Positions 1,116 through 7,499 are shown, counted from the first letter of the stretch. The stretch: DNA of 64,000 bases from an uncultured Bacilli bacterium (GCA_934101225.1 CAKOQK010000002.1:40633-104632), one strand, 5' to 3'. A program made the numbers and translations. Notes: generated by a model from the letters alone, not told the origin.

Positions 1116-2669
1116 ATGAAAACTAATTGTCAAAAACTAAAAAATATTTTAGAGACATACACTGATATTTATATTTTTATAATCTTGTTAATATTTCCTT
1201 TTATAGTTAATAAAGATGGATTCTTTCATATTTTAGAATGTAAATGGTATTCATATTTAATTATTGGAATGACATATTTAACTCTAAACTTAGTAACGTT
1301 ATTATATTTTTATATCTTTAAAAAAGTTAATTATTTTAAAAATTATAAATTATCTAAAGTACAATTATTTGCCATTTCATTATTAATTATTAATATTATA
1401 TCTTGCTTATTATCTCCTTATCTAAAAGATTATAATTTACTTATAGGAGTTGGTAGAGGAGAAGGATTAATAATTACTTCCCTTTATATTCTTTCTTTTT
1501 TAAGCATAGCTTTATTTGGCAAATTTAAAAGAAAATATATTTTATATTTTTCGCTTTTATCAATAATTCATAATGGAATATGTGTGCTTCAATATATTGG
1601 CTTTAATCCATTAAATATGTATCAAAATGGGATTGGAACCCATAATGTAAGTTTTATGGGAACAATAGGTAATATTGATTTTATATCAGCACTTTATTGC
1701 ATCTTAATACCAGTATCTATTTCATCATATCTTTTTCTTAAAGATAATAGTAAAAAAGAAAATATTATTCATTTAACATCAATATTTTTATCATTCTTTA
1801 TTTTAGGTATTATAAATGTTCAAAGTGGTAAACTAGCCTTATTAATAATGCTTATGTTAACTTTTCCTTTAATTATCAAAAATAACCAAAGATTAAGTAA
1901 ATTTCTTATCATATTATCATTAATATTGATGGCATACTGCACCAATATCATATTAAATCCCGAGTATCATTACGACATTAATAAACTAGGACTTTATTTT
2001 AAATTTAATTATATTGTTATATTGTATTTAATTGTTATTTTTATATTAATTTATTTATCAAAAGTTTTAAAAAATACTAACTACAATATTTTAAATGATA
2101 AAAAGTTAATTAAATATTATTTTATTGGAATATCTATTTGTGGAATATTTGGAATAATTATTATATATAATATAAATTTTAGTAGTGGGTTTTTATATGA
2201 AATTCATGAATTATTACATTTAAATTTTGATGAAGAATTTGGAACATATAGAATATTCTTATGGAAAAGAACTTTAAAGTTAGTAAAAGATTATCCTTTA
2301 ATAGGAACAGGGCCAGATACCTTTGCATTAAGGTTTATGGCAAAGTATACTGAAGATATTAAAGCAATTGGCCCTTTAACAATTAATGATACAGCAGCCA
2401 ATGTTTATTTAACAACTTTAATAAATTTAGGAGTAATTGGTCTTTCTAATTATTTATTATTAATGTTTTCATTATTAAAAAAAGGATTAAAAGAAATGAA
2501 TAATTATTCTAAAATATTGTTACTTGCTTTTATTTGTTATCTAATTCAAGATTTTTTTAATCTTTCAGTTGTAATAGTAAGTCCAATATTTTGGCTATTA
2601 ATAGGAGTTTTATACATAAGTTTAAATGCTGACAAATTAACTTGTAAAAAAGGAATAAAAACAATATAA
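1116..2669 (+). CDS. O-antigen ligase / Wzy_C family polytopic membrane protein
   Basis: Many hydrophobic segments. The motif GTYRIFLWKRTLKLVKDYPLIGTGPDTF resembles the conserved loop of the WaaL/PglL/WsaB-type family. Confidence 0.65.
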   Translation: MKTNCQKLKNILETYTDIYIFIILLIFPFIVNKDGFFHILECKWYSYLIIGMTYLTLNLVTLLYFYIFKKVNYFKNYKLSKVQLFAISLLIINIISCLLSPYLKDYNLLIGVGRGEGLIITSLYILSFLSIALFGKFKRKYILYFSLLSIIHNGICVLQYIGFNPLNMYQNGIGTHNVSFMGTIGNIDFISALYCILIPVSISSYLFLKDNSKKENIIHLTSIFLSFFILGIINVQSGKLALLIMLMLTFPLIIKNNQRLSKFLIILSLILMAYCTNIILNPEYHYDINKLGLYFKFNYIVILYLIVIFILIYLSKVLKNTNYNILNDKKLIKYYFIGISICGIFGIIIIYNINFSSGFLYEIHELLHLNFDEEFGTYRIFLWKRTLKLVKDYPLIGTGPDTFALRFMAKYTEDIKAIGPLTINDTAANVYLTTLINLGVIGLSNYLLLMFSLLKKGLKEMNNYSKILLLAFICYLIQDFFNLSVVIVSPIFWLLIGVLYISLNADKLTCKKGIKTI

Positions 2670-2697
2670 TTAAATTGTAAAGTAGAGGAGTTTGAAA

Positions 2698-4323
2698 ATG
2701 AAAAAAGATAAAATATTAGAATTAGTTATAGGTGGAATTATTATATTCTCTGTAGGGATATTTATAGGTTATAAATTAAATAGTGGTGCAATAAAAAATA
2801 TTCAAGGCTATCTATTTAATGCTAGCGGATTTGCAACTGATCCAAATGCGACTGATTGTAACGCAACAGATAGTAATGCGACTGACAGTAATGCGACTGA
2901 TAGCAACGCTACTGATTCCAACGCAACAGATAGTAATGCCACTGATTCCAATGCAACTGACAGTAATGCTACAAGTTCAAATGCATCTATAAATGATAAT
3001 ATTTTAATTTTATCTAGTTTTTATTTAAAAACAACTACTGGTAAAACTGGTGAAAAAATATATGTTAATTTACAAACTCAAGGAACAACTAATACTGGTG
3101 CATCTGTATCTTTTAAAAGTACAAAGGGATACACCTTTACAACAAGTATTTATTCAATAAATAATAATCCTTACATTATAATTCCTAACAATATTCTTCC
3201 TGATACTTATAATGTAACAGATTTATTATTAACTGGTTTAAATAGTGATTATACAACATTTACTAAACATTATGGTCAAAATGGTAATTTTAACTATACA
3301 TTCAGTTCAAAATTAATTATCAGTTCTGAAAATAAAACCAATATAAAATTAAATAGCTTCACTTTAAAAACTAATAAAGCCAATATATCAGATAAAGTAT
3401 ATTTCGATATTCAAACAAGTGAAAAACTAACTAATTTAAAATTAGAATTAAAAGGAAGTAACAATACATTTACTGTCTATGCTGCTTCTTTAAATAATAA
3501 TCCATATTTTGAAATTCCTTCTAATAGTACTGAAGGAAAATATATACTAACTTCATTAACTTTAATAAACAATGATAACACCGTAATATATACAAATAAT
3601 GGAAATAATGGAACATTAAAATATGTATTTAATTCTTATTTAGAAATAACTAATAATAGTAATAAAAAACATGTTTATAATAATGAAGATATTGATACAA
3701 CTGTTATATCTAAGTTATATGAAAGTGATAAAAATTCTGAAATAGCTATAAATGCTAATGAAAATAGTTTTATAAGTAGTGAGTTATTTAACATTATAAA
3801 AGGAACTAATAGAACTCTTAAAATAAATAATAATGATAATGAATTAATTTTTAAAGGAAATGATATTAAAGAAGCTAAAACAATTGATGTTAATACTAAA
3901 GTTTATTTAACTGAAGTTAACAATAACATTAATGAAATAGTAAAAAAGGGAATTATAATAGATTTTCCTGATAATGGTTCATTACCTGGAAATGCTTTAG
4001 TTAAGATTAAAAATAATGATGATATTAAAAAGGTTTTAGATAGTAAAGTAAACGTTTATTATTATAATGATAAAACTAATAAATTTAGATTAATAAGTAG
4101 AGGAATAACTTTAACTGAAGATTATTATGAATTTAATATTTCACATACATCTAGTTATGTTTTAACTAATGAAGAAATAGATAAAAAATATTTAGAAACA
4201 AATGAAAATGTAGTAAATTTCCAAAAAAGTAATAAAGTAAATTTACTTCTAATTGGAGCAGGAGTTTTAGTTATAATTGGAACAACTTGTCTAATAATTT
4301 TTATTAAAAGAAAAAATAAATAA
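2698..4323 (+). CDS. Membrane-anchored surface protein with an ATDSN pentapeptide repeat stalk, two internally duplicated ~110-aa domains and a C-terminal TM anchor
   Basis: ATG at 2698 follows GGAGG at 2684-2690; the track starts at TTG 2692. N-terminal hydrophobic segment. Paired domains FYLKTTTGKTGEKIYVNLQT... and FTLKTNKANISDKVYFDIQT.... C-terminal LLLIGAGVLVIIGTTCLIIFIKRKNK. Confidence 0.7.
   Translation: MKKDKILELVIGGIIIFSVGIFIGYKLNSGAIKNIQGYLFNASGFATDPNATDCNATDSNATDSNATDSNATDSNATDSNATDSNATDSNATSSNASINDNILILSSFYLKTTTGKTGEKIYVNLQTQGTTNTGASVSFKSTKGYTFTTSIYSINNNPYIIIPNNILPDTYNVTDLLLTGLNSDYTTFTKHYGQNGNFNYTFSSKLIISSENKTNIKLNSFTLKTNKANISDKVYFDIQTSEKLTNLKLELKGSNNTFTVYAASLNNNPYFEIPSNSTEGKYILTSLTLINNDNTVIYTNNGNNGTLKYVFNSYLEITNNSNKKHVYNNEDIDTTVISKLYESDKNSEIAINANENSFISSELFNIIKGTNRTLKINNNDNELIFKGNDIKEAKTIDVNTKVYLTEVNNNINEIVKKGIIIDFPDNGSLPGNALVKIKNNDDIKKVLDSKVNVYYYNDKTNKFRLISRGITLTEDYYEFNISHTSSYVLTNEEIDKKYLETNENVVNFQKSNKVNLLLIGAGVLVIIGTTCLIIFIKRKNK
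2833..2988 (+). repeat. About ten tandem 15-bp units encoding (A-T-D-S-N)n
   Basis: The units read directly as gcaactgatccaaat / gcgactgattgtaac / gcaacagatagtaat / gcgactgacagtaat / gcgactgatagcaac / gctactgattccaac / gcaacagatagtaat / gccactgattccaat / gcaactgacagtaat / gctacaagttcaaat. Confidence 0.9.
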
Positions 4324-4339
4324 GAACTGTTAAAATAAA

Positions 4340-4939
4340 CTAACAGTTCTTTTCACATATTGAAATAACATAGTTATCATATATAAAAGAATAACATTTA
4401 ACATTTATATCACTACAATAAATATGATTGTTACTAATTGTAAATTCAACATTTTTAATATCAAATATACTTTTTCCCATCATTTTAATATAAGCTTCTT
4501 TTAAAGTATAAATTTCAAATAATCGTTTAAATAGATTATTATCTTCTAATAAAATATATTCTTTTTCTTTATTACTAGCAAAATAATTAATAGATTTAAT
4601 ATTAGTTTCTCTAATTTTTTCAATATCAATACCTATTTCTTTATCAGAAACAACAGTTATAACATAATTAGAAGAATGACTTATATTATAGAATATATTT
4701 TTGCTAACAATAAAAGGTTTATTATTTTTATTAAATTTGAATTCTAAGTTATTATAGTTAAGATTATAATATTTATTTAATAAGTTACTTAAAAGAATTT
4801 CCCCAATAATTGATTGTTTTACTTTAAGTTCATTCTTAAAATTATTAATTCTTTTTTTCTTTTCAATATAAATATTATTATAAAAATTATTAATCTCATT
4901 ATCACTATAATCATTAATATTTTTAATTATATACTTCAT
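4340..4939 (-). CDS. 4'-phosphopantetheinyl transferase, Sfp type
   Basis: GIDIEKI and LKEAYIK(M)G motifs, about 200 aa, divergent from a carrier-protein operon. Confidence 0.7.
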   Translation of the reverse strand: MKYIIKNINDYSDNEINNFYNNIYIEKKKRINNFKNELKVKQSIIGEILLSNLLNKYYNLNYNNLEFKFNKNNKPFIVSKNIFYNISHSSNYVITVVSDKEIGIDIEKIRETNIKSINYFASNKEKEYILLEDNNLFKRLFEIYTLKEAYIKMMGKSIFDIKNVEFTISNNHIYCSDINVKCYSFIYDNYVISICEKNC

Positions 4940-5020
4940 AAATATTCACCATAATCACCTATATAATATCATTTTTAATATTAATTTGTTATAATTAATT
5001 TGAAATTTGAGTAGGAGTAT

Positions 5021-5854
5021 ATGATTATGACTAGAAAATTATTTTGCGATATAAGTCCAACATGCTATAAAATATCAGTTCAAAAAGAAATTTTATTAAG
5101 AAAAACAAAAGATTTATTAAGTAAAGAAAAGATAGCAAAAACAAAAAATAAAGAACCATTACCCAATATTGTTAAAAGTCATACTTCGATATTGATAAGA
5201 AAATTACATGGAGTAGATATTAAACTTCAAGAAAATAAAGTAACAAATATTAGCCTAGCATGTAATCAAATAAATGGAATAATTATTCATCCAGGAGAAA
5301 CTTTTTCATATTGGCAAATGGTGGGAAAACCAACTAAAGAAAAAGGATATAAAGAAGGATTAGTTATTGGAAGAGATGGGTTTTATGCTGGTACTGGTGG
5401 CGGATTATGTCAAATGGCTAACATGATTCATTATTTAGTTTTAAATAGTCCTTTAGAGGTAACTGAACTTCATCATCATTCAGATGCTTTATTTCCTGAT
5501 GACCGAAGAAGAGTACCTTTTGGTACCGGAACCAGTGTTTGTTATAATAATTTAGACTATCGTTTTAAAAATAATACTGATCAAGATATTCAAATTCTTG
5601 TATGGATAGATGGTGGCGAACTTTGCGGTGAACTTAGAAGTAAAAAGGCATTCCCTTGTCGATATAAATTAGTTGAAGAAGATCATCATTTTAAAAAAGA
5701 AAAAAATAAATATTTTAGAATATCAAAAGTTTATCGTATTGTAATTGATAGATTAACAAATGAAGAGTTATATAAAGAATTAATTTTAGATAATCATTCA
5801 GAAGTAATGTATGATTATGATTTAATTCCTAAAGATGAAATAAGAAGTGAATAA
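5021..5854 (+). CDS. VanW-domain protein (no signal peptide or TM evident)
   Basis: Core motif GTGGGLCQMANMIHY and a surrounding pattern typical of the VanW family. Confidence 0.65.
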   Translation: MIMTRKLFCDISPTCYKISVQKEILLRKTKDLLSKEKIAKTKNKEPLPNIVKSHTSILIRKLHGVDIKLQENKVTNISLACNQINGIIIHPGETFSYWQMVGKPTKEKGYKEGLVIGRDGFYAGTGGGLCQMANMIHYLVLNSPLEVTELHHHSDALFPDDRRRVPFGTGTSVCYNNLDYRFKNNTDQDIQILVWIDGGELCGELRSKKAFPCRYKLVEEDHHFKKEKNKYFRISKVYRIVIDRLTNEELYKELILDNHSEVMYDYDLIPKDEIRSE

Positions 5855-5856
5855 AT

Positions 5857-7257
5857 GTGATAATAGATAAAATTAAAGAAATAGTAAAGTTGTATCCTGA
5901 TAGAGTAGCTTATACTGTTGATAATGAAAGTATAACTTATGAAAATTTATGGAATAACGCTACTAAATATTCAAAATTCTTAAAAAATGAAGAAACATCT
6001 CCAATTATTATTTATGGTAACAAAGAAATTAATATGATCATTTCAATTTTATCTTGTTTACTTGCTAAAAGAGCTTATATTCCTATTGGAACATGCATGC
6101 CAACATCAAGAATAAATTCTATTATAAAAATGACTAATGCAAGTTTAATTTTAACTGATTATGAAATTAACATTCCTAATATTAAGATATCAAAAATAAC
6201 AGATTTAAGTAGTGCTCCTATTAAAGAAGAAGATAATTTAAATAATACTTCTTATATTATTTTTACATCAGGAAGTACCGGAGAGCCAAAAGGAGTTCCA
6301 ATATCCTATAATAATTTAGATAATTTTGTTAATTGGATTAGTAATATTTATCCATTATCCGATTATCATAATATAAATGTATTAAATACTGCTAGTTTTA
6401 GTTTTGATTTAAGTGTTGCTGACTTATATTATTCATTATGTAATGGTCATACGTTATTTGCTACTAATAATAATTGCTCATGTAGCTACTTTAATATTTT
6501 TGATACTTTAAAAGATATAAACCTAATTGTTTGCACTCCAACATATATCAAATTATGTTTATTAGATTCTAGCTTTAATAGTCAAAATTATCCTAATTTA
6601 AAATGTATTTATTTTTGTGGAGAACAATTAGAAATTAATTTAGTTAAAAAATTATATTCATTATTTCCAAATATCGATATTATTAATGCTTATGGACCAA
6701 CCGAAGCAACATCAGCAGTATCAGCCATAAGAGTTGTTAGAGAAATGGTAAATGAAGATATTTTGCCAGTTGGTGATATAATTAATTTAGCTGTAAATAT
6801 CGAAATAATAAATAATGAAATAGTGTTAAAAGGTAAAAGTGTATTTGATGGTTATTTAAATATTACCACTGATAATGTTTATAAAGAAAATGGAATAAAT
6901 TGTTATAAAACAGGCGATTTAGGTTACATAAGAAATAATATGTTATATATTACCGGAAGAAAAGATAATCAAATAAAGTATAAAGGATATCGTATTGAAC
7001 TTCATGATATTGAAAATAATATTTTACAAATAAAAGACGTAATAGATTGTGCTGTAATTGCTAAATATGATGAAAATAATATTGTTAAAACTCTAAAAGC
7101 ATTTGTAGTAAGTAAAAATAAAGATTCAAATTATATAAAAGAAAAATTAAAAACAATGTTACCTAATTATATGATACCTAAAAGTATTGTTATTTTAGAT
7201 AAATTACCAGTTAATTTAAATGGTAAAATAGATAGAAAGGCTTTAAGTAAATTATGA
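5857..7257 (+). CDS. Stand-alone adenylation enzyme, DltA-like (D-alanine--carrier protein ligase family)
   Basis: GTG start. AMP-binding motifs IFTSGSTGEPKGV, AYGPTEAT, YKTGDLG and NGKIDRKAL. Collinear with my recollection of B. subtilis DltA (FSFDLSV, CTPT/STPS). Confidence 0.8.
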   Translation: MIIDKIKEIVKLYPDRVAYTVDNESITYENLWNNATKYSKFLKNEETSPIIIYGNKEINMIISILSCLLAKRAYIPIGTCMPTSRINSIIKMTNASLILTDYEINIPNIKISKITDLSSAPIKEEDNLNNTSYIIFTSGSTGEPKGVPISYNNLDNFVNWISNIYPLSDYHNINVLNTASFSFDLSVADLYYSLCNGHTLFATNNNCSCSYFNIFDTLKDINLIVCTPTYIKLCLLDSSFNSQNYPNLKCIYFCGEQLEINLVKKLYSLFPNIDIINAYGPTEATSAVSAIRVVREMVNEDILPVGDIINLAVNIEIINNEIVLKGKSVFDGYLNITTDNVYKENGINCYKTGDLGYIRNNMLYITGRKDNQIKYKGYRIELHDIENNILQIKDVIDCAVIAKYDENNIVKTLKAFVVSKNKDSNYIKEKLKTMLPNYMIPKSIVILDKLPVNLNGKIDRKALSKL

Positions 7258-7499
7258 AAAATAAAATAGATTTATATAAAATACTATATGAAATATGTGA
7301 AGATAAATTAGTTTATGAAAAAGATATTAATTTAATTGAAAGTGGTTTACTAGATTCATATGCTTTTATTTTATTATTTTCTACCTTAGAAGATTATGGT
7401 GTTTTTTTAGAGCCTACTAGAATAGATAGATCCAAATTAGCAACAGTTTCAGGAATTCAAGAATTAATAGATGATTACCTAAATAAAAATATATCCTAA
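7254..7499 (+). CDS. Small acyl/peptidyl carrier protein, DltC-like
   Basis: 81 aa with the LLDS motif (phosphopantetheine Ser). ATGA start/stop overlap with the upstream adenylation gene. Confidence 0.7.
   Translation: MKNKIDLYKILYEICEDKLVYEKDINLIESGLLDSYAFILLFSTLEDYGVFLEPTRIDRSKLATVSGIQELIDDYLNKNIS

Follow-up and report, generated by a model that had tools for sequence, protein, structure and literature searches.

In Geobacillus stearothermophilus and Paenibacillus alvei, the Wzy_C-type O-oligosaccharyltransferases (O-OTases) WsaB and WsfB ligate an ABC-exported, undecaprenyl-pyrophosphate (Und-PP)-linked glycan to Thr/Ser (or Tyr) residues of the proteins SgsE and SpaA, respectively. To our knowledge, WaaL-type protein O-glycosylation is barely charted in Gram-positive bacteria and uncharted in the abundant, uncultured, small-genome Bacilli of the gut. 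In the Gram-negative pilin systems TfpO(PilO)-PilA, TfpM-pilin, and PglS-ComP, a WaaL-related enzyme is encoded beside one cognate substrate, which has an N-terminal hydrophobic membrane helix and a single acceptor Ser/Thr in a small-residue, Ala-rich context (PMC12645811). Known O-OTases favor acceptor sites that are disordered and rich in Ala, and a dedicated enzyme has its gene next to that of its substrate (PMC12645811). Here we describe a locus of an uncultured Bacilli bacterium in which an O-antigen-ligase-family membrane protein (Wzy*, positions 1116 to 2669) is encoded beside a surface protein with a pentapeptide repeat (SURF, 2698 to 4323), together with three partner genes for a VanW-domain protein (VanW*), a DltA-like adenylating enzyme (DltA*), and a DltC-like carrier protein (DltC*). 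The window, that is, the whole stretch of DNA analyzed, comprises 64,000 nucleotides (GCA_934101225.1, CAKOQK010000002.1:40633-104632) at a G+C content of ~22% and belongs to a draft genome of 1.34 Mb; positions are counted from its first letter, and genes lie on the plus strand unless stated otherwise. Judged from the comparisons below, the five genes look like an undescribed system that decorates one dedicated surface protein.

The linkage of these genes was assessed by a locus scan with one genome per species, which returned 76 loci, ~45 of them encoding Wzy* at 44 to 66% identity. The genomes were metagenome-assembled genomes (MAGs) throughout; the ~45 Wzy* hosts were uncultured gut or rumen MAGs labeled Bacilli, 'Clostridium sp. 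CAG:575', 'CAG:1219', Tenericutes, or Erysipelotrichaceae, and the genomes hosting the module measured 0.9 to 1.6 Mb. Clustering of the neighboring open reading frames (ORFs) placed a SURF homolog directly after Wzy*, or two or three genes off, in 40 of the 45 loci (Wzy* itself being present in 45/45), a VanW-domain protein and a DltA-like adenylase each in 38/45, and a DltC-like carrier in 36/45, with contig ends accounting for most of the missing module genes. A TraX-family membrane protein (16/45), an Sfp-type 4'-phosphopantetheinyl transferase (PPTase; 15/45), and PrsW (11/45) were less frequent, and no recurrent neighbor beyond these families emerged from the clustering of the 45 loci. 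At least four core gene orders were found: W-S-(P)-V-A-C, which is that of the window (1116 to 7499), V-A-C-W-S-(T), S-T-V-A-C-W, and W-S-T-V-A-C, where W is Wzy*, S is SURF, P is PPTase, V is VanW*, A is DltA*, C is DltC*, and T is TraX. In the V-A-C-W-S-(T) order the carrier gene abuts or overlaps the start of Wzy*. The flanks of the module were unrelated between loci, and in the Wzy* tree the gene orders fell in two deep clades with branch lengths of 0.3 to 1.5 substitutions per site.

A comparison of 24 genomes of the window's genus and 37 genomes from other genera gave the same picture. Wzy* and VanW* orthologs occurred in an identical set of 10/24 genomes, nine of which also had a DltA* ortholog, the tenth being an 86%-complete MAG, and none of the three was found in the 37 genomes from other genera. 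The naive probability of this exact co-occurrence by chance, ignoring relatedness, is 1 in 1,961,256, or C(24,10); the carriers represent about five independent lineages. These data indicate that the Wzy*/SURF pairing is conserved and coinherited and that Wzy*, SURF, VanW*, DltA*, and DltC* are, by gene content and order, a portable five-gene module to which a PPTase or TraX gene is sometimes added. No publication retrieved by full-text literature searches described this combination of genes, and we know of no instance in which the WaaL-fold, DltA/DltC, and VanW families work together.

Wzy* (517 amino acids [aa]) is a polytopic protein of the Wzy_C/O-antigen ligase family with ~14 transmembrane (TM) helices and is proposed to be a ligase of the outer membrane face. 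Residues 299 to 446 matched Pfam Wzy_C (PF04932) with an E value of 5e-12 and 46.3 bits (cut-off, 31.7), and the same domain was present in 120/120 Wzy* homologs among the matches listed. The AlphaFold2 (AF2) model, built on a 20-sequence alignment, had a predicted local distance difference test score (pLDDT) of 85 and a predicted template modeling score (pTM) of 0.87. Its top PDB fold match was WaaL (7tpg_B; E value of 1.7e-5; template modeling score of 0.46/0.57), followed by the SEDS polymerases FtsW and RodA, and the sole PDB match at the sequence level was 9rmk_A, 'Oligosaccharyltransferase' (E value of 1.4e-3). The predicted topology comprised 14 helices with the N terminus inside, the density of Lys plus Arg being 25% in the inside loops versus 8% in the outside loops. 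Of the 68 invariant residues, 43 were in predicted outside loops and 1 was in an inside loop, suggesting that the conserved working surface of Wzy* is extracytoplasmic, as in WaaL and PglL. A single loop predicted to be outside (residues 353 to 429) carried 23 invariant residues, and the invariant charged residues of the outside loops were R114, E116, H368, R379, R385, D401, R406, and D425.

As a separate observation, four loci with a distant Wzy_C protein (L075, L080, L081, and L085; Ruminococcus/Clostridiales MAGs) were found in which the next gene encodes a membrane protein with a MTRREYLTALNQYL N terminus and long YSAPTYPTQQQS-type repeats. They represent another recurrent pairing of an O-antigen ligase gene with a repeat protein.

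The SURF ORF runs from 2692, where there is an alternative TTG start; the likely start is the ATG at 2698, since an AGAGGAG site lies 7 nt 5' of it. This ATG is 28 nt past the Wzy* stop at 2669. Hydrophobic helices are located at residues 3 to 28 and 512 to 540, the latter followed by KRKNK, and the positively charged termini (MKKDK... and ...KRKNK) place the whole middle of the protein outside. The AF2 model (pLDDT, 81) consisted of the first TM helix (3 to 28), a short helix (35 to 42) with the IQGYL motif, a disordered segment (43 to 100) containing the repeats, two Ig-like beta-sandwiches (103 to 318), an alpha/beta domain (325 to 490), and the second TM helix (512 to 540); residues 34 to 96 scored <50 and the domains at 103 to 318 and 325 to 490 scored >90. 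The order along the protein is thus TM1, a juxtamembrane IQGYLFN helix, a disordered repeat stalk, beta-sandwiches, the alpha/beta domain, a VVNFQKSNK motif, and TM2, and by model and topology the repeats begin ~20 residues from the membrane. SURF matched no Pfam or NCBIfam family, including in alignment-wide Pfam scans, and a PDB fold search with the middle region returned generic Ig-like/adhesin matches only.

SURF homologs were 26 to 56% identical, over alignments ranging from ~50 residues to full length, and 193 to 616 aa long. Every one of them had the same five parts, namely, the N-terminal helix, the motif (I/L)(Q/E)G(Y/F)(L/M)(F/Y), a period-5 repeat, the motif V-x-F-(Q/L)-(K/E), and the C-terminal helix. 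The remainder varied from 0 to ~400 residues, and the short forms (193 to 260 aa) retained just TM1, the repeats, and TM2.

The protein encoded downstream of Wzy* takes another form in the two most divergent Wzy* lineages, those of genomes G019 (L017:2920-3582) and G013 (L018:3956-4618), where VanW* and DltA* are on other contigs. This protein of 220 aa is rich in Tyr and Asp (...YMYAFADGERFYKF...YLYYATSSDTNYDYMYADY...), has one TM helix at either end, and lacks a clear pentapeptide array; it may be an alternative acceptor, perhaps Tyr based.

The repeat array of the window, [N/D]-A-[T/S]-x-x, occupies positions 2845 to 2994 and reads NATDC, seven NATDS units, NATSS, and NASIN, with ATDP just before it. 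The sequence-only reading had identified both a Wzy_C-like protein ending 28 nt before a surface protein and about ten copies of A-T-D-S-N in the exposed N-terminal region of the latter; the first is borne out by the profile score and the start at 2698, and the second by an array that is disordered in the model and close to the membrane. Tandem Repeats Finder reported a period of 15 with 72% DNA matches. The seven NATDS units exist in six DNA versions (74% DNA identity), and codons that are rare in the genome (GCG, AAC, GAC, and TCC) are overused in them. SURF was the only ORF of the 1.34-Mb genome with at least two tandem [ND]A[TS]xx units. Across 40 SURF orthologs, a pattern-free autocorrelation of residues peaked at lags 5 (0.36) and 10 (0.29), versus 0.07 to 0.09 elsewhere, and the tripeptides NAT, SNA, ATS, and ATD were 30- to 68-fold enriched in the repeats relative to the rest of the protein. 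The repeat is more than a chance patch of low complexity.

The unit types across orthologs included NATDS, NATDA, NASNS, NATNS, NATTP, NASSA, NATSS, DATSS, and DATSC, in arrays of 3 to 12 tandem units. Among units chosen by an [ND]A[TS] search, 81% had Asn and 19% had Asp at position 1, and positions 4 and 5 varied freely; Ala and T/S are built into that search, and the same core was apparent in the pattern-free counts and the raw sequences. Relatives that are otherwise 94 to 98% identical had 5 to 11 NATD[CS] units, compared with 9 in the window (for L011 to L014, the identity of SURF is 94 to 96%), so the array appears still to expand and contract although its codons are scrambled. The proposed acceptors are the Thr/Ser residues directly after the invariant Ala. 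This site fits those of O-OTases and their dedicated substrates, since it is disordered, flanked by Ala, often next to an acidic residue, tethered to the membrane, and encoded beside the enzyme. SURF thus resembles the pilin substrates of TfpO, TfpM, and PglS in its N-terminal membrane helix and the small-residue, Ala-rich context of its Ser/Thr (PMC12645811), whereas the setting here is a low-GC member of the Bacillota, the target is a two-TM protein, and there are 3 to 12 sequon-like units in place of one acceptor residue. As an incidental observation, Cys was common at positions 4 and 5 (DATSC, NATDC, and NATCS; 23/231 units), which is odd for an extracellular disordered stalk.

VanW* (5021 to 5854) is a stand-alone VanW domain of ~275 aa, the length of the van-cluster VanW model, with no signal peptide or TM segment. 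It matched Pfam VanW (PF04294) over its whole length (E value of 6e-41; 139.5 bits) and scored 190 bits with NCBIfam vanW-gen, under the cut-off of 365. The N terminus carries a conserved RKLFC, there is no extra domain, and the motifs GGGLCQ and HHHxDAxFPD were invariant in 38 orthologs. VanW* was the best-conserved gene of the module, with 76 to 83% identity where Wzy* had 54 to 66%. A PDB sequence search returned no match, and the homolog search listed same-clade proteins only and is uninformative about occurrence outside the clade. Work published in 2024 established VanW domains as L,D-transpeptidases of the Cys-His-Asp type, which act via a thioacyl-Cys intermediate (PMC11348318). VanW* has in common with Ldt4/Ldt5 and the enterococcal VanW a VanW domain with conserved Cys and His/Asp motifs; Ldt4 and Ldt5, however, are membrane anchored, extracellular, and equipped with PG4 domains (PMC11348318), whereas VanW* has no export signal and is always found beside an adenylase and a carrier. 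We propose that VanW* is a cytoplasmic, Cys-dependent acyl or aminoacyl transferase. The VanW* ortholog of G013 (C32:3005-3826) contains one in-frame TGA and may be a pseudogene or an assembly error.

DltA* (5857 to 7257) appears to be a paralog of canonical DltA. It scored 416 and 404 bits with the NCBIfam DltA models (cut-offs, 476 and 560); its nearest stand-alone enzyme in the PDB was Bacillus subtilis DltA (3E7W; E value of 3e-78), with the multidomain linear gramicidin synthase LgrA scoring higher (E value of 2e-85). On visual inspection, DltA* retains two residues of DltA, the Asp of FDxS and the Cys of FCGE. DltC* (7254 to 7499) is a carrier protein of 81 aa in which the (L)DS phosphopantetheine site is conserved, the DS motif being invariant in 37 orthologs, and its match to the DltC model was weak (28 bits; cut-off, 68; E value of 1e-6). 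The likeness to DltABCD(X) thus lies in the DltA* score and the carrier Ser motif, and the difference lies in scores under the curated cut-offs and in the lack of partners: the MBOAT protein DltB and DltD were absent from 45/45 module loci, and the window's own genome contained no canonical dlt operon and no homolog of its relatives' DltD-like genes. The canonical DltA proteins of the relatives G019 and G016 share 29 to 30% identity with DltA* and are encoded in dltA-dltC-MBOAT-dltD-like operons, and G019 has both such an operon and the module with its DltA* ortholog. An ordinary Dlt system was therefore ruled out for DltA* and DltC* on the grounds of the missing DltB/DltD, the low identity, and the coexistence of both systems in G019. 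In addition, G013 carries a second DltA-type gene (~32% identical). The single MBOAT protein of the window's own genome (462 aa; contig C16:24832-27317) has a DHHW-family protein as its partner; neither DltA nor DltC is encoded nearby, and this pair is probably an O-acetylation system.

The remaining gene between SURF and VanW* in the window encodes the Sfp-type PPTase (4340 to 4939, minus strand; Pfam ACPS and AASDHPPT_N; NCBIfam AusB/HetI-like), an accessory gene confined to the window's branch whose product presumably primes the carrier protein. A 12-bp hairpin with T-runs (4322 to 4351), likely a bidirectional terminator, lies between it and the convergent SURF gene. At five loci of the window's clade (e.g., L026:11460-12773), a GH3 (NagZ-like) glycoside hydrolase with an N-terminal anchor is encoded between SURF and the PPTase. 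The TraX-family (PF05857) membrane protein, found at L031:11911-12732 and 15 other loci (e.g., L043, L045, L047, L050, and L053 to L058), is an extra module member in the second clade, which has no Sfp PPTase; no homolog was present in the window's own genome. One possible role is the transfer of acyl or acetyl groups to SURF or the donor.

A lipid-linked donor glycan would have to come from elsewhere in the genome. No initiating transferase, glycosyltransferase, Wzx, or Wzz/polysaccharide co-polymerase gene was part of the Wzy* module in the 45 loci surveyed. The window's own genome (G000) encodes MraY and two glycan-assembly loci. The first, on contig C4 (58587 to 66826), consists, in order, of a TagO-like GT4 gene, an O-antigen_lig/TagA fusion gene, GT2 genes, and an ABC-2 transporter, and a TagO-like (second GT4) gene was present in 23/24 genomes of the genus. 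A TagO-like gene with an ABC transporter recalls the WsaB and WsfB systems, which were compared by description; those enzymes, however, sit in large glycan clusters and serve few S-layer sites, whereas the module has no glycosyltransferases and its target is a membrane-anchored repeat stalk. The fusion protein itself is unusual, being 717 aa long and joining an O-antigen-ligase-like membrane domain (PF13425) to a WecG/TagA glycosyltransferase in a teichoic-acid-type locus. The second, on contig C1 (97718 to 120181), is a cps-type locus of the Wzx/Wzy kind, complete with Wzz, CpsD, Wzx, Glf, Wzy_C, glycosyltransferases, and Bac_transf. Its Wzy_C protein (392 aa) provides the locus with a polymerase of its own, and Wzy* was therefore ruled out as the polymerase of the cps locus. 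Directly adjoining this locus is an apparent sortase/pilin-type cluster, judged by ORF size and N-terminal signal sequences alone. Dependence of the module on a Bac_transf-primed glycan was unsupported: Bac_transf was present in 7/10 module genomes versus 10/14 nonmodule genomes, no such gene was shown in the module genomes G003, G009, and G013, and G003 is 93% complete.

Taking together the gene linkage and co-occurrence, the folds and topology, the motif, and the availability of lipid-linked glycan pathways, we infer the following chemistry, substrates, and order of events. In the cytoplasm, DltA* would adenylate a small, D-Ala-like amino acid and load it onto holo-DltC*, primed by the adjacent PPTase. 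Cytoplasmic VanW* would accept the aminoacyl group on its catalytic Cys and pass it to an undecaprenyl-(pyro)phosphate-linked saccharide from housekeeping pathways, either the TagO-like/ABC-transporter pathway or Lipid II, one of which would be available in every host. The decorated lipid-linked glycan would then be exported, and at the outer face of the membrane the WaaL-fold Wzy* would transfer it to the Thr/Ser after the invariant Ala of [N/D]-A-[T/S]-x-x, the N-terminal helix of SURF keeping the repeats beside the membrane. We assign a probability of roughly 45% to this proposal, that is, that Wzy* ligates an Und-PP-linked glycan to the repeat Thr/Ser of SURF outside the cell after the cytoplasmic trio has added a D-Ala-like residue to the donor.

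For the cytoplasmic part there is a precedent. In the AlmE/AlmF/AlmG system of Vibrio cholerae, which adds glycine to lipid A, a DltA-like ligase and a DltC-like carrier supply a transferase other than the MBOAT protein DltB or DltD, and the target of this transferase is a lipid-linked glycoconjugate (PMC4278540). By analogy, the trio most plausibly decorates the donor before export. AlmG is an LpxL-type acyltransferase acting on lipid A, whereas the third enzyme of the module has a VanW fold and is joined to a WaaL-fold ligase and a protein acceptor.

The idea of the sequence-only reading that Wzy* and SURF may be an enzyme and its dedicated acceptor came through these comparisons well, since the pair is conserved (the co-occurrence in related genomes that it had called for extends to several gene orders), the sequon-like motif is juxtamembrane, and the glycan-assembly genes it had looked for elsewhere in the genome are present as the TagO-like/ABC-transporter locus and the cps locus. 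What did not stand is the notion of an isolated pair, which is instead bound to the VanW, DltA-like, and DltC-like genes at 5021 to 7499. Wzy* also lacks the domains and histidines of PglL, as set out below.

Several findings weigh against the proposal. The usual role of DltA and DltC is in the modification of teichoic acids. The module encodes no glycosyltransferase or flippase and would for that reason have to draw on a housekeeping lipid-linked precursor. The protein downstream of Wzy* in G019 and G013 has no clear repeat. The ligase histidines are absent, in that the THSHN of 9rmk_A aligns to a conserved D-T-A-A-N in Wzy*, and the catalytic chemistry may consequently differ from that of WaaL and PglL. 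Of the Pfam families, only PF04932 was found in Wzy* at an E value of ≤0.01; PglL_A (PF15864) and Wzy_C_2 (PF11846) were absent, and these, alongside Wzy_C, are the domains by which PglL/PglS enzymes are recognized (PMC12645811). Membership of Wzy* in the PglL/PglS class was ruled out by this domain content and the missing His. These absences, like the genetic joining of a carrier-protein aminoacylation trio to the pair, also set Wzy* apart from TfpO, TfpM, and PglS. Finally, the characterized VanW enzymes, Ldt4 and Ldt5 of Clostridioides difficile, are extracellular peptidoglycan cross-linkers (PMC11348318). The module thus fails at least one defining feature of each of the PglL/PglS enzymes, the canonical WaaL-type ligases with their His, the Dlt system, and the extracellular VanW transpeptidases.

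The alternative that survives best, which we nevertheless regard as unlikely, is that Wzy* polymerizes or ligates a cell-wall glycopolymer that the trio aminoacylates, SURF being a nonsubstrate scaffold or a co-polymerase-like regulator. The TM/extracellular domain/TM layout of SURF is like that of polysaccharide co-polymerases, and the lack of the canonical ligase His and the SEDS polymerases as next-best fold matches would suit a polymerase. Distant Wzy* homologs (23 to 31% identity; Oscillospiraceae and Christensenellales) also belong to polysaccharide loci of the ordinary kind, with WbaP-like, GT2, and ABC genes and without any of the four partners. However, no Wzz domain or helical domain was found in any SURF ortholog, and the short forms are almost wholly low-complexity repeats between two helices. 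What is strictly conserved in SURF is a sequon-like pentapeptide in a disordered segment rather than a fold, and the cps locus of the genome already has its own Wzz, Wzx, and Wzy.

We also considered a noncanonical Dlt-type pathway, in which the amino acid itself would be esterified to the Thr/Ser of SURF, either as the end product or as a DltX-like relay to teichoic acid, with Wzy* in place of DltB as the conduit through the membrane. The closeness of DltA* and DltC* to DltA and DltC is compatible with such a pathway, as are the overlap of the DltC* and Wzy* genes in one gene order and the absence of DltB/DltD partners from the module and from a genome whose sole MBOAT protein is encoded elsewhere with a DHHW protein. 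The conserved surface of Wzy*, however, is nearly all extracytoplasmic, and with 1 of 68 invariant residues in a cytoplasmic loop there is no evident docking site for a carrier protein. VanW* is cytoplasmic and so cannot fill the role of DltD, and we know of no acyl transfer by a WaaL fold. Furthermore, G019 has a complete canonical dltA-dltC-MBOAT operon in addition to the module, and G013 has its second DltA-type gene. Such a pathway is improbable in our estimation.

Equally hard to credit is a scheme in which Lipid II is the donor, VanW* edits its stem in the cytoplasm with carrier-bound D-Ala, and Wzy* attaches the muropeptide to SURF, which would be tied to the wall or prime its synthesis. 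PglL reportedly transfers peptidoglycan subunits to pilin, and the fold of Wzy* is also that of FtsW and RodA, whose substrate is Lipid II. The absence of a module glycosyltransferase or flippase, the small genomes (0.9 to 1.6 Mb), and the three module genomes without Bac_transf (G003, G009, and G013) imply the need for a universal precursor, and substrates of the VanW family are stem peptides ending in D-Ala (PMC11348318). The TagO-like pathway, however, is equally universal in the genus, family and fold searches found no peptidoglycan-binding domain in SURF, and the module is accessory (10/24 genomes) and not tied to wall-synthesis genes; nothing specific supports this scheme.

Modification of Asn, with the repeats serving as N-glycosylation sequons (N-A-T/S, or the D-x-N-x-S/T form that the sequence-only reading had pointed out in the D-S-N-A-T of the window unit), is scarcely credible even though 81% of units begin with Asn and all have T/S at +2 (T/S being partly built into the pattern), since L045 and L047 have arrays of six to eight D-A-T-S-x units with no N-x-S/T, which excludes it as the conserved function, and since Asp replaces Asn in 19% of units, the −2 Asp is missing in the NASNS, NATTP, NASSA, and NATSS types, and the linked enzyme has an O-ligase fold and is not an STT3 protein.

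We therefore return to transfer of a glycan by Wzy* to the Thr/Ser of SURF. The patchy distribution of the module (10/24 genomes), the variation in repeat number between near-identical strains, and the variable ectodomain of SURF suggest a surface structure that faces the host or phages and is under diversifying selection. A further step, which we regard as doubtful at present, would be that the five genes define a new class of surface glycoconjugate, in which a WaaL-fold ligase lacking the histidine would load the tandem [N/D]-A-[T/S] sequons of a membrane protein with a glycan or glycopolymer that a carrier-protein-dependent VanW-fold transferase had aminoacylated in the cytoplasm. If that were true, the product would resemble teichoic acid, as a D-alanylated polymer anchored to a protein and formed in the absence of DltB and DltD. 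The module points to a way of aminoacylating surface polymers without these two proteins. With a single enzyme, a single acceptor, and a short sequon that is transferable, the module is also a compact test case, and the sequon could serve as a glyco-tag. We know of no function assigned to stand-alone VanW proteins in vancomycin resistance clusters; the module suggests a cytoplasmic role for stand-alone VanW proteins and, if the new class were real, would provide the first function for those of the cytoplasm, including the ones of the vanB and vanG clusters.

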